Shown here one piece after another: positions 54,911 to 56,038 of a stretch of 59,824 bases of DNA. Source of the DNA: Escherichia coli (GTDB taxonomy: Bacteria; Pseudomonadota; Gammaproteobacteria; Enterobacterales; Enterobacteriaceae). Position numbers and translations under genes: made by a program. The notes under the pieces are model-generated. The model did not search any database. It was not told where the DNA came from and saw nothing but the letters and a program-made list of their open reading frames with translations. Location: assembly GCF_003334255.1 (NCBI RefSeq), contig NZ_QOWU01000028.1; one strand, 5' to 3'. How positions within the stretch are numbered: the first letter of the stretch is position 1; each line of letters starts with the position of its first letter.

Positions 54911-56038
54911 TTAACGGCGTCTATAGCCTTCCTCTAGCACCGCCTGTGTTCGAACGAGTTCATCTGCGAGTCGTTTCTCATCAGGTAGTTGCATCTTATA
55001 TTCGCTTGCCAGAACGGTGTTAGGCAAACCTGCCAGAGCATAATGCGCTTCTCCGGCTCCTTTCTCTGCACAGAGAACCAGACCGATGGGCGGATTTTCA
55101 TCCGGTAGCGTCCAGTGCTCTTTGGCGTAGTTGAGATACATATTCATCTGTCCGGCATCGCTATAGCTGAATTTGCCCACTTTTAGATCGACGATTAGCA
55201 GGCAGCGTAAACGGCGGTGGAAAAACAGCAGATCGACACGAAACCAGTTGTCATCAATGCGTAACCTTCGCTGCCGACCAACAAAGGCAAAATCATCCCC
55301 AAGTTCCAGCATGAAATCCATCAGGTGGTTGATCAGCGCCTCCTCAAAATCGGATTCTGAATATTCATCTTTCAATTCCAGAAATTCGAGCACAAAGGGA
55401 TCGCGTATCGCCTGTTGCGGAAGAATATGCGTCTCGGCAGGAGCGTGTTGTTGCAGCATGGCTGATTTGTCATGTGACAGTAGTGTCCGCTCATAAAACT
55501 GGGTCGCAATTTGCCGCTCTAGCTGGCGAACAGACCAGCCACAGCGGAGCGTCTCTTTTTCATAAAAGCTGCGGGCGTCAGCGTTTTTAACGGAAAGTAA
55601 ACGGACGTAGGTGGACCTGGGCAAGGGGAAAGATTTGGCAGACAGCGTCTGCCAAATCTTTGCCGATGGGAATTCTGCAGACGGTGTCTGCGGAATTCCC
55701 AATGGTGTTAATTCGCCAGACATTGTCTGGCGAATTTCAACATGTTGAAAAAAGAGGTAAAAAAGCCTCATTTGGCGTAAGTTTTTTGCAGAGAACCCAC
55801 GCTTATACCTTAGACATAAATCCTTTGATAGTCGCTTGATTAGCTGCGCACCATACGCAGCCCTGGCCTCGCCACCTTGTTCAAATTCGACAATTCGTCG
55901 GCCAATTTCCTGGTACGTCGCGGTCATTAACGCGTTAACGCTACGTACCGTTTCCGTCCGGGCGCTATCGACCAGATGAATAATACCGTCGTGGATTTGC
56001 TGGTAGCCTGCTGTGGTTCCTTCTGAGAGCGATTCCAT
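54911..56038 (-). CDS. yhcG: DUF1016 / PD-(D/E)XK nuclease-like protein
   Basis: 375-aa ORF; contains three tandem 13-aa repeats encoded by palindromic 39-bp DNA units. Confidence 0.85.
   Translation of the reverse strand: MESLSEGTTAGYQQIHDGIIHLVDSARTETVRSVNALMTATYQEIGRRIVEFEQGGEARAAYGAQLIKRLSKDLCLRYKRGFSAKNLRQMRLFYLFFQHVEIRQTMSGELTPLGIPQTPSAEFPSAKIWQTLSAKSFPLPRSTYVRLLSVKNADARSFYEKETLRCGWSVRQLERQIATQFYERTLLSHDKSAMLQQHAPAETHILPQQAIRDPFVLEFLELKDEYSESDFEEALINHLMDFMLELGDDFAFVGRQRRLRIDDNWFRVDLLFFHRRLRCLLIVDLKVGKFSYSDAGQMNMYLNYAKEHWTLPDENPPIGLVLCAEKGAGEAHYALAGLPNTVLASEYKMQLPDEKRLADELVRTQAVLEEGYRRR
55628..55735. repeat. Three tandem 39-bp units, each a 27-33 bp palindrome, inside the yhcG coding sequence
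   Basis: AAAGATTTGGCAGAC-agc-GTCTGCCAAATCTTT (55628..55660), GGGAATTCTGCAGAC-ggt-GTCTGCGGAATTCCC (55667..55699, one mismatch), AATTCGCCAGAC-att-GTCTGGCGAATT (55709..55735); centres 39 bp apart. Confidence 0.85.

Follow-up and report, generated by a model that had tools for sequence, protein, structure and literature searches.

Several kinds of short palindromic or repeated DNA have been described that resemble parts of the feature analyzed here. The REP/BIME palindromes of E. coli and related GTAG/CGTC-tagged repeats are short (20-40 bp), form stem-loops, often occur in tandem and occasionally lie between convergent genes, but they are extragenic, are present in hundreds of copies per genome, carry a GTAG or CGTC tag and are linked to RAYT transposases (PMC3733652). 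Rickettsia palindromic elements (RPEs; Ogata et al. 2000) appear to be selfish repeats of about 100-150 bp that are inserted in frame into many unrelated genes of one genome, adding a tolerated peptide segment to a protein, and to be lineage-restricted; small repeats in coding regions are reviewed in PMC3184786. Quasipalindromes in individual E. coli genes are template-switch hotspots, in which imperfect inverted repeats form hairpins during replication and are converted towards perfect symmetry (PMC7202029). Type III toxin-antitoxin loci of the ToxI type likely carry tandem RNA-encoding units of about 36 nt, variable in copy number, upstream of a nuclease gene and separated from it by a terminator. 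Finally, a length polymorphism in yhcG, with amplicon alleles of 394 and 392 bases, is already used in the LSPA-6 scheme for typing E. coli O157:H7 (PMC3514354, PMC8733641), where it is treated as an anonymous marker; neither palindromes nor a family-wide element is mentioned in the passages of these papers that we examined.

YhcG belongs to the DUF1016 family (Pfam PF17761 and PF06250), a very large family of PD-(D/E)XK nucleases with no characterized function, for which a search of representative sequences found 21,241 cluster representatives at E <= 0.001. Family members sit on plasmids, on conjugative elements (PMC4316617), inside type I restriction-modification operons (PMC9881135) and among candidate anti-phage systems. 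We analyzed a stretch of 59,824 nucleotides of E. coli DNA (assembly GCF_003334255.1, contig NZ_QOWU01000028.1), hereafter the window, in which yhcG lies next to nan and fimbrial-type genes. The encoded protein matched both Pfam domains (E = 1.3e-36 and 1.6e-56 for the N- and C-terminal domains, respectively) and the PADLOC candidate defence family PDC-S02. Notably, the N-domain match spans 166 residues against a 137-position model, and the approximately 29 extra residues equal about two extra 13-aa units. No NCBIfam model matched YhcG or a 101-aa 'transposase', and Pfam found nothing for the latter. A sequence search of the PDB found no solved relative, and Foldseek gave only weak matches of the C-domain to PD-(D/E)XK nucleases such as MGME1, NucS and RecE (E >= 4.5e-3).

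A first-pass annotation of the window had reported three palindromes inside yhcG, with centres exactly 39 bp apart and encoding three tandem 13-aa repeats. We confirmed this observation, and identified a fourth copy just past the stop codon that the annotation had missed. The core CAGACNNNGTCTG occurs four times in the window against 0.07 expected, and no shuffled sequence contained it more than once. The 141-nt segment folds at -67.8 kcal/mol as RNA (shuffles -31.1 +/- 3.6, z = -10.1), the sense strand forming three strong hairpins, and at -50.7 kcal/mol as DNA (z = -11.6). Tandem Repeats Finder reported no array, because the units are only about 70-78% alike.

Coordinates of the yhcG features in the window
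Position	Strand	Feature	Arms and centre	Sequence	Encoded peptide
54911..56038	-	yhcG ORF, 375 aa: DUF1016_N (aa 19-184) and YhcG_C PD-(D/E)XK nuclease domain (aa 208-360)			
55710..55736		Unit nearest the 5' end of the gene (first in mRNA order)	55710-55721 / 55725-55736, 12 bp, or 13 bp (100% complementary) around a 1-nt centre; centre 55723	AATTCGCCAGACA-T-TGTCTGGCGAATT	IRQTMSGEL
55668..55700		Second unit	55668-55682 / 55686-55700, 15 bp with one mismatch; centre 55684	GGGAATTCTGCAGAC-GGT-GTCTGCGGAATTCCC	IPQTPSAEF
55629..55661		Third unit; corresponds to the single copy that leads into the conserved PLPW/LSWSH helix in other family members	55629-55643 / 55647-55661, 15 bp, perfect; centre 55645	AAAGATTTGGCAGAC-AGC-GTCTGCCAAATCTTT	IWQTLSAKS
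54871..54895		Fourth copy, outside the ORF, 16 nt past the yhcG stop, between the convergent genes nanQ and yhcG and in frame with yhcG	Arm identical to the left arm of the second unit	ATTCTGCAGAC-ACT-GTCTGCAGAAT	
55639..55794	-	Hypervariable allele patch (gene nt ~245-400), the only part of the gene that differs strongly (40-73% identity) between the two E. coli allele types; the palindromes plus about 55 nt upstream, with one boundary inside the last palindrome's arm			

To examine whether the palindromes are peculiar to E. coli, we compared distant DUF1016/YhcG genes (36-60% identity, many phyla). The same element, with the consensus ATT-N4-AGACA-N-TGTCT-N4-AAT, was found in the same linker inside the N-terminal domain and in the same codon register, with its centre on the first base of a codon. 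When genes were positioned by a profile anchor, 53 of 73 had a perfect hairpin with arms of at least 9 bp in the ~210-nt linker, and 66 such hairpins lay in the linker against 6 elsewhere in the genes (4.31 vs 0.08 per kb). With a tolerance of at least 9 of 11 pairs, 71 of 73 genes carried 1-4 copies and 114 of 116 centres were in frame 0. By the strict criterion, however, the element is missing from 20 of 73 genome-set genes and 22 of 31 viral-set genes, so it is not essential to the protein. We found no description of such an element in the papers that could be searched.

We next asked whether the symmetry could follow from the encoded protein. Synonymous-codon shuffles reached a 9-bp arm in only 1.4% of 7,300 trials, and 48 of 73 genes exceeded all 100 of their shuffles. 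The peptides differ widely where the symmetry is kept (IWQSAIAKS, IRESLTPEL, IVGTASPQS, IFSTVSKKL and others), and in the representatives 85 of 90 residues after Ser are those with G-initial codons. In a test unselected for symmetry, 57 sequences anchored only on the peptide motif FY..YP.I were 77% Watson-Crick paired at positions 2-12, against 17-26% in most shifted registers. Pair counting gave 83.4% paired against 63.2% in shuffles (0 of 500 shuffles reached the observed value), a covariation score of 0.425 against 0.137, and double-sided changes at 9 of 11 pairs. Thus, what is conserved is the complementarity of the two arms: the four middle base pairs change freely between lineages but stay paired, while the peptide varies and lies in a linker that AlphaFold predicts with low confidence (pLDDT below 50 at residues 102-122). 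The loci are related by descent and by horizontal transfer, and these counts are not independent events. The conserved inner and outer bases could also come from codon constraints (Ile = ATT, small residues = xCx codons) rather than from recognition. The apparent conserved motif in the Pfam N-domain would partly reflect this nucleotide element.

Within E. coli, yhcG proteins carry 1, 2 or 3 units, whereas Salmonella has one perfect copy and Citrobacter freundii one copy with a single mismatch. Together with the family-wide distribution, this supports in-frame expansion of a small palindromic element, one of three explanations that the first-pass annotation had listed without choosing among them; the three 39-bp units are a lineage-specific tandem amplification. 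That annotation had considered that distant homologues with the same peptide repeats but without DNA symmetry would indicate ordinary protein repeat architecture; instead, distant homologues keep the DNA symmetry and vary the peptide. It had recognized neither that the feature belongs to the whole gene family nor that the length polymorphism is already used for O157:H7 typing. Stems are shared by tandem copies within a gene (16 of 27 pairs vs 6% between genes), while loops and flanks are not. The site is also a breakpoint. We observed a 78-bp in-frame junction in 9 genomes, deletions of 80 bp and 52 bp, with O157/O26 genomes 80 bp shorter here, and, in ATCC 8739-type strains, replacement of the C-terminal two thirds of the gene from the palindrome edge. 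This explains why yhcG is length-polymorphic and often pseudogenized in E. coli, including the O157:H7 marker. Alleles differ by paired changes on the two arms (CGC/GCG to GTG/CAC; G/C to C/G), as described for quasipalindrome template-switch sites. The fourth copy is probably a relic or duplicate of the coding element. A read-through protein variant translates it as ILQTLSGES, one allele carries a compensatory change in it, and the only 3 differences in about 70 nt around it lie in the palindrome.

Compared with the systems outlined above, the element is 25-27 bp long and, like RPEs, is translated in frame (100 of 103 dyads are centred on codon position 1). However, in place of the dispersal among unrelated genes that appears to characterize RPEs, 118 of 155 genuine copies (at least 76%) from metagenome and viral scans lie in DUF1016 genes or their relics, and the element is tied to this family at one position and one codon register across phyla. 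In contrast to REP/BIME palindromes, three of the four copies are inside an ORF, no GTAG or CGTC tetranucleotide is present at the ends of the units, no RAYT gene is nearby, and a 38-nt query found a median of 3 and at most 6 places per E. coli genome, the listed best places having the coordinates of the yhcG locus. The known quasipalindrome hotspots share the hairpin-forming symmetry, and their conversion towards perfect symmetry fits the symmetric allele differences and the fragility seen here, but they are not an element conserved at a homologous position in a gene family. With respect to ToxI-type repeats, which probably fold as pseudoknots, the units here lie within the ORF, fold as simple hairpins and show no RNA-type wobble signature. 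The spacers of 6-12 nt, inside an ORF, do not fit a CRISPR array, in which unique spacers are about 26-72 nt. None of the four copies was called as an intrinsic terminator and none has a T-run. In Rfam 15 the best match scored 23.6 bits against a threshold of 80, to a microRNA model, i.e. a generic hairpin. A programmed frameshift signal was also rejected, since only E. coli has a U-rich run upstream and the family consensus (TAYCCNCAR ATT) has no slippery site.

Taken together, these results suggest, with moderate confidence and on sequence evidence alone, that the element acts as DNA, not as protein and probably not as mRNA, its arms pairing within a strand as a hairpin on single-stranded DNA or as a cruciform in supercoiled duplex. 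Symmetry may be kept by selection on pairing, helped by replication template-switching that copies one arm from the other, with slippage between units changing copy number; the fragility of the site would be a consequence of the same property. Template-switch correction could, however, produce compensatory-looking changes without selection. As to its role, our best guess, which is tentative, is a symmetric site or structure recognized by a dimeric protein. The nuclease encoded by the same gene is the only partner that always travels with the element, which would give cis self-recognition (autoregulation or self-marking), although up to about 27% of genuine copies have no DUF1016 homology nearby, and a different partner is possible. 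A still more speculative and unlikely possibility is that this in-frame self-recognition element, recognized by the gene product or a co-travelling factor, forms together with free-standing copies in restriction-modification, toxin-antitoxin and other defence loci a previously unrecognized class of cis-acting sites that organize regulation or cassette exchange in defence islands.

Control at the level of the mRNA, also raised by the first-pass annotation, would have the hairpins slow ribosomes or offer RNase III a cleavage site, lowering or timing expression of a potentially toxic nuclease, with three copies strengthening the effect. The strong folding, the covariation and the fixed position inside the ORF agree with this view, and nuclease genes may often be tightly controlled. 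However, mismatches show no G·U preference (G·T 25, A·C 26, other 96, the same proportions as in random registers), the centre base is G in 55 and C in 40 cases, indicating no strand polarity, and the centre geometry is fixed in 100 of 103 dyads, although in-frame loop insertions would be harmless to an RNA hairpin. Copies also occur outside ORFs. Because the lack of wobble could partly reflect coding constraints or the all-or-nothing state of the copies, an mRNA role is weakened and appears unlikely, but is not excluded. We consider about equally doubtful a selfish or neutral palindrome, tolerated in a disordered linker, kept symmetric by arm-to-arm template switching and multiplied by slippage without benefit to the host. 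The low-confidence linker, the variable copy number and fragility, the survival of copies in decayed gene fragments, the absence of wobble preference and the symmetric allele changes fit this reading, and quasipalindrome template-switching is an established mutational route in E. coli (PMC7202029). On the other hand, the constant position and register across phyla mean inheritance with the gene rather than repeated insertion. In addition, the element is retained in 71 of 73 genes of a subfamily whose members are only about 45-60% identical to the query alignment, and stems evolve much more slowly than loops and flanks, as expected under purifying selection on pairing and not under neutral arm homogenization.

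A dedicated recombination site, allowing N- and C-terminal modules, alleles or neighbouring cassettes to be exchanged in defence islands, is less probable still. The allele patch bounded inside a palindrome and the ATCC 8739-type replacement are consistent with it, as are a toxin-antitoxin cassette flanked by two 179-nt DUF1016 fragments that carry the palindromes and orphan copies lying between genes of type I R-M and other defence operons. Yet no recombinase is consistently linked to the element, the junctions are heterogeneous, with different edges, as expected from a fragile site rather than from site-specific recombination, and a side effect of hairpin formation explains the same data. 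The least likely alternative is that the peptide I-x-Q-T-x-S-x-E is the selected feature and the DNA symmetry follows from it and from codon usage. The peptide motif does recur in many homologues and its last copy leads into a conserved helix, but the synonymous shuffles (1.4% vs 73%) and the divergent peptides contradict this reading, and the non-coding copy and the low-confidence linker also speak against it.

We also examined the orphan copies, those outside recognizable DUF1016 genes. A relic test restricted to the reading frame was too strict, whereas an all-frame test and one individual locus showed that many are DUF1016 relics; a scrambled-pattern control, run with a single pattern, showed that some of the rest are generic palindromes. 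The published AbiEi-type operator, with two 23-bp inverted repeats 3 bp apart (13 bp apart within each of the two pairs for Rv2827c) overlapping the promoter of an abiE operon, has a different architecture (PMC7319586). However, 6 orphan copies lie next to AbiEi_4 or DUF6088 genes, and one lies directly after a TATAAT box 30 nt upstream of the start.

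Inspection of the window confirmed the three palindromes at the positions reported in the first-pass annotation, with centres spaced 39 bp, or 13 codons, apart. All three lie in a minus-strand ORF of 375 aa, which is annotated yhcG in E. coli genomes and has the Pfam domains DUF1016_N and YhcG_C, the latter a PD-(D/E)XK nuclease domain. The core CAGACNNNGTCTG occurs four times in the window against 0.07 expected. The fourth match, which was missed by the first-pass annotation, is a perfect palindrome located outside the ORF, 16 nt past the stop codon, between the convergent nanQ and yhcG genes. 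The segment folds far better than shuffled sequences, both as RNA (z = -10.1) and as DNA (z = -11.6). The coordinates of these and other features are collected in the table.

Coordinates of the palindromes and of associated features in the window and in the retrieved loci
Feature	Sequence	Coordinates	Arms	Centre
Palindrome unit 1	window	55629-55643 / 55647-55661	15 bp, perfect	55645
Palindrome unit 2	window	55668-55682 / 55686-55700	15 bp, one mismatch	55684
Palindrome unit 3	window	55710-55721 / 55725-55736	12 bp (13 around a 1-nt centre)	55723
Fourth palindrome, outside the ORF	window	54871-54895	11 bp, perfect	
yhcG ORF	window	54911..56038 (-)		
Patch differing between the two allele types	window	~55639-55794		
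Antisense ORF, 59 aa	window	55660-55839 (+)		
yhcG upstream region	window	~56038-56223		
Fimbrial-type gene cluster	window	56223-59694		
Replacement in ATCC 8739-type strains	L002 and L004	L002 2030-2500; corresponds to window ~54852-55632		
IS3-family element in yhcG	L005	2880-4093 (about window 55805)		
Direct repeats flanking a toxin-antitoxin cassette	L321	4686-4864 and 6008-6186		
Free-standing palindrome near AbiEi_4 or DUF6088	L130	2205-2229		
Free-standing palindrome near AbiEi_4 or DUF6088	L159	3975-3999		
Free-standing palindrome near AbiEi_4 or DUF6088	L170	1734-1758		
Free-standing palindrome near AbiEi_4 or DUF6088	L192	8702-8726		
Free-standing palindrome near AbiEi_4 or DUF6088	L242	3129-3153		
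Long dyad with the palindrome as its core	L137 and L214 (same element)	L137 4565-4613	24 bp, perfect	
Palindrome between hemF and hemB	L184	2612-2636	perfect	

The region is held by 4,430 of 5,426 complete E. coli genomes. Close homologues have 1, 2 or 3 units, corresponding to proteins of 349, 362 and 375 aa in one allele type, and of 358, 370 and 382 aa in a second type with a 12-aa period. The exact 78-bp (two-unit) in-frame deletion junction is present in intact yhcG genes of 9 complete genomes. Other strains carry an 80-bp deletion (O26/O157, annotated as frameshifted), a 52-bp deletion between two units, an IS3 insertion, or a replacement of everything from the nanQ stop to the edge of the first palindrome. 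The IS3-family element, found in the E. coli locus L005, is inserted in the 5' part of yhcG and represents another independent inactivation of the gene. In E. coli ATCC 8739-type strains (loci L002 and L004), the C-terminal two thirds of yhcG and the fourth palindrome are replaced by about 470 bp carrying a 101-aa ORF annotated 'transposase' (WP_000639208.1), which matches no Pfam or NCBIfam model, and the junction is exactly at the outer edge of a palindrome. Notably, yhcG is one of the six length-polymorphic loci of the LSPA-6 scheme for O157:H7, for which alleles of 394 and 392 bases are reported (PMC3514354, PMC8733641).

The two allele types are 92-100% identical along the gene except in a ~155-nt patch, which covers the palindromes plus about 55 nt upstream and has one of its boundaries inside a palindrome arm. 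Two haplotypes of the helix just before the palindromes (…NLRQMR.FY… and …NLWQ[FI][KR].FY…; proteins P0043/P0045 and P0054/P0075 among the homologues) are each found in E. coli, Salmonella and Citrobacter, which is either a trans-species polymorphism or repeated exchange of this small patch. Where the alleles differ within palindromes, they differ on both arms at once: CGC/GCG becomes GTG/CAC, and G/C becomes C/G. The only three differences in about 70 nt around the fourth copy lie in the palindrome. Salmonella has a single perfect copy (ATTCCGCAGACA-C-TGTCTGCGGAAT) and Citrobacter freundii has one copy with one mismatch; neither has a downstream copy.

To examine whether the element extends beyond these close relatives, we analyzed cluster representatives about 40% identical to YhcG, and found that they carry 1-6 copies of [I/K]-x-Q-T-x-S-x-[K/E/Q]-[S/L/F] in the same linker. 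The positions flanking Q-T-x-S follow codon logic, not chemistry. Of the 90 residues after Ser, 85 are G, A, D, V or E, which all have G-initial codons, whereas the next residue is mostly K, E or Q (xAA), and the next S, L or F (T-initial). DNA was then retrieved for 80 distant homologues from many phyla and 40 from viral contigs. Perfect palindromes with 9-16-bp arms sit at the same place in these genes, while the peptides there differ widely (IWQSAIAKS, IRESLTPEL, IVGTASPQS, IFSTVSKKL, IGLQAVTQL and others). With a profile anchor, 53 of 73 genes were found to have a perfect hairpin with arms of at least 9 bp in the ~210-nt linker, with 66 hairpins in the linker against 6 elsewhere in the genes, or 4.31 against 0.08 per kb. 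With a tolerance of at least 9 of 11 pairs, 71 of 73 genes have 1-4 copies, 114 of 116 centres are in frame 0, and the centre-to-centre spacings are, with one exception, multiples of three between 30 and 135 nt. The E. coli triplet is therefore an ordinary member of this range.

To test whether the symmetry could follow from the encoded protein, synonymous codons were shuffled within each gene, a procedure that keeps the protein and the codon usage. An arm of at least 9 bp was obtained in 1.4% of 7,300 trials, against 73% of real genes, and 48 of 73 genes beat all of their 100 shuffles. We next assembled a set not selected for symmetry, consisting of 57 unique 25-mers anchored only on the peptide motif FY..YP.I. 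These sequences are 77% Watson-Crick paired at positions 2-12, whereas most shifted registers give 17-26%, and 34 of the 57 have at least 10 of 11 pairs. Pair counting on the same set showed 83.4% of cells paired, compared to 63.2% in column shuffles (0 of 500 reach the observed value) and 32-44% in slid registers, a covariation score of 0.425 against 0.137 in the control, and double-sided changes at 9 of 11 pairs. The sequences are related, so these are not independent events; however, the 100 deduplicated hairpins include 59 distinct arm 7-mers.

The consensus of the element is ATT-N4-AGACA-N-TGTCT-N4-AAT. Positions 10-12 and 2-5 from the centre are conserved, whereas positions 6-9 are free but paired. 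The closing pair at position 2 is C-G in about 85% of copies, and the centre base is G (55) or C (40). Tandem copies within a gene share the variable stem (16 of 27 pairs against 6% between genes), but their loops and flanks are no more alike than between genes, so stems evolve much more slowly than their surroundings. AlphaFold2 places the encoded peptide in a predicted non-helical stretch between helices of the N-domain, with pLDDT below 50 at residues 102-122.

We then asked whether the pairing is more likely to operate in DNA or in RNA. Non-canonical positions comprise G·T 25, A·C 26 and other 96, the same proportions as in random registers, although a wobble-tolerant RNA helix should be enriched in G·U. 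There is no strand polarity in the centre base or in the loop triplets. The centre geometry is the same in 100 of 103 dyads, although an extra codon in the loop would harm neither an RNA hairpin nor a disordered linker. Copies also occur outside ORFs, none of the copies has a T-run, and no match was found in Rfam. We therefore favour a DNA-level element, meaning a hairpin, cruciform or dyad site, although a role in mRNA is not excluded.

In E. coli a 38-nt query finds a median of 3 and at most 6 places per genome, and the listed best places have the coordinates of the yhcG locus. Among the classified hits to the pattern, 105 are in DUF1016 genes or large relics, 13 are in small relics, 42 are genuine palindromes with no DUF1016 homology within 450 nt, and 17 are chance-like matches. 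As a control, a composition-matched scrambled palindromic pattern gave 26 viral hits, none of which is in a DUF1016 ORF and only one of which is fully paired at positions 6-9, compared to 9 fully paired hits outside DUF1016 ORFs for the true pattern. Orphan copies lie between hsdM and hsdS, next to hsdR, between the DUF1156 and DUF499 anti-phage genes, next to AbiEi_4/DUF6088 antitoxin genes and next to HTH genes. In five of the retrieved loci (L130, L159, L170, L192 and L242), free-standing copies lie 30-215 nt upstream of AbiEi_4 or DUF6088 (AbiEi-like antitoxin) genes, and in L130 the copy lies directly after a TATAAT box; this arrangement could reflect an operator, a relic or a coincidence. 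In L137 and L214, the palindrome is the core of a much longer dyad (GGCGGTTCACAAATTAGTCAGACA-G-TGTCTGACTAATTTGTGAACCGCC), with weak DUF1016 N-terminal homology upstream and an HTH gene about 350 nt away. In L184, a family-type palindrome (AATTGGGCAGACA-A-TGTCTGCCCAAT) lies in the 75-nt gap between the housekeeping genes hemF and hemB with no DUF1016 homology nearby, and may be a generic palindrome matching by chance.

In a further locus, L321, a Panacea-like antitoxin plus MazF-like toxin cassette next to a tyrosine integrase is flanked by 179-nt direct repeats (94% identical). The repeats are DUF1016 gene fragments, each carrying two palindromes and the residual motif LLMRMEDINARNFYEIEAF, which suggests cassette insertion or recombination at the palindrome region. 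The E. coli fourth copy is in frame with yhcG, and its upstream codons (FQRFRI) resemble the internal FQRIEI of the second allele type; it is probably a relic or duplicate as well.

Taken together, these results show that the palindromes are a nucleotide-level, self-complementary element intrinsic to DUF1016/YhcG genes, which is amplified to three copies in this E. coli lineage, varies in copy number and is a breakpoint for rearrangements. We infer that the element acts as DNA, and that its symmetry is kept by selection on pairing, helped by template-switch correction, which is an established route in E. coli (PMC7202029). Our searches of the literature found no description of palindromes in DUF1016/YhcG genes, although coverage was incomplete and a prior description elsewhere cannot be excluded; the papers that mention the family treat it as an uncharacterised restriction-endonuclease-like protein on mobile elements and in R-M loci.

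With regard to function, we tentatively prefer a site or structure recognised by a dimeric protein, most economically the encoded nuclease, but this reading is itself less likely than not and only somewhat more probable than its closest competitors. Control at the level of mRNA and a self-maintaining selfish palindrome are both doubtful, and we rate them about equally. A recombination site seems less likely still, and an ordinary protein repeat is very improbable.

In the window and in L005, yhcG is followed by fimbrial-type genes (yhcF and a YhcE-family gene as annotated in L005, and an usher-like 738-aa ORF in the window), whereas in the loci L001, L002 and L003 it abuts gltD directly, revealing a presence/absence polymorphism of the gene cluster next to yhcG. 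In the yhcG upstream region, the RegulonDB ncRNA G0-10703 is reported to be transcribed divergently from yhcG, with a 128-bp overlap with its 5' UTR, and to be induced in stationary phase (PMC7967276); it does not overlap the palindromes. Finally, the strand antisense to yhcG reads ILQTVSAEF and IRQTLSGEF. Because of the dyad design, each unit encodes the same kind of peptide on both strands, and the antisense ORF is a mirror artefact, not evidence of a gene.
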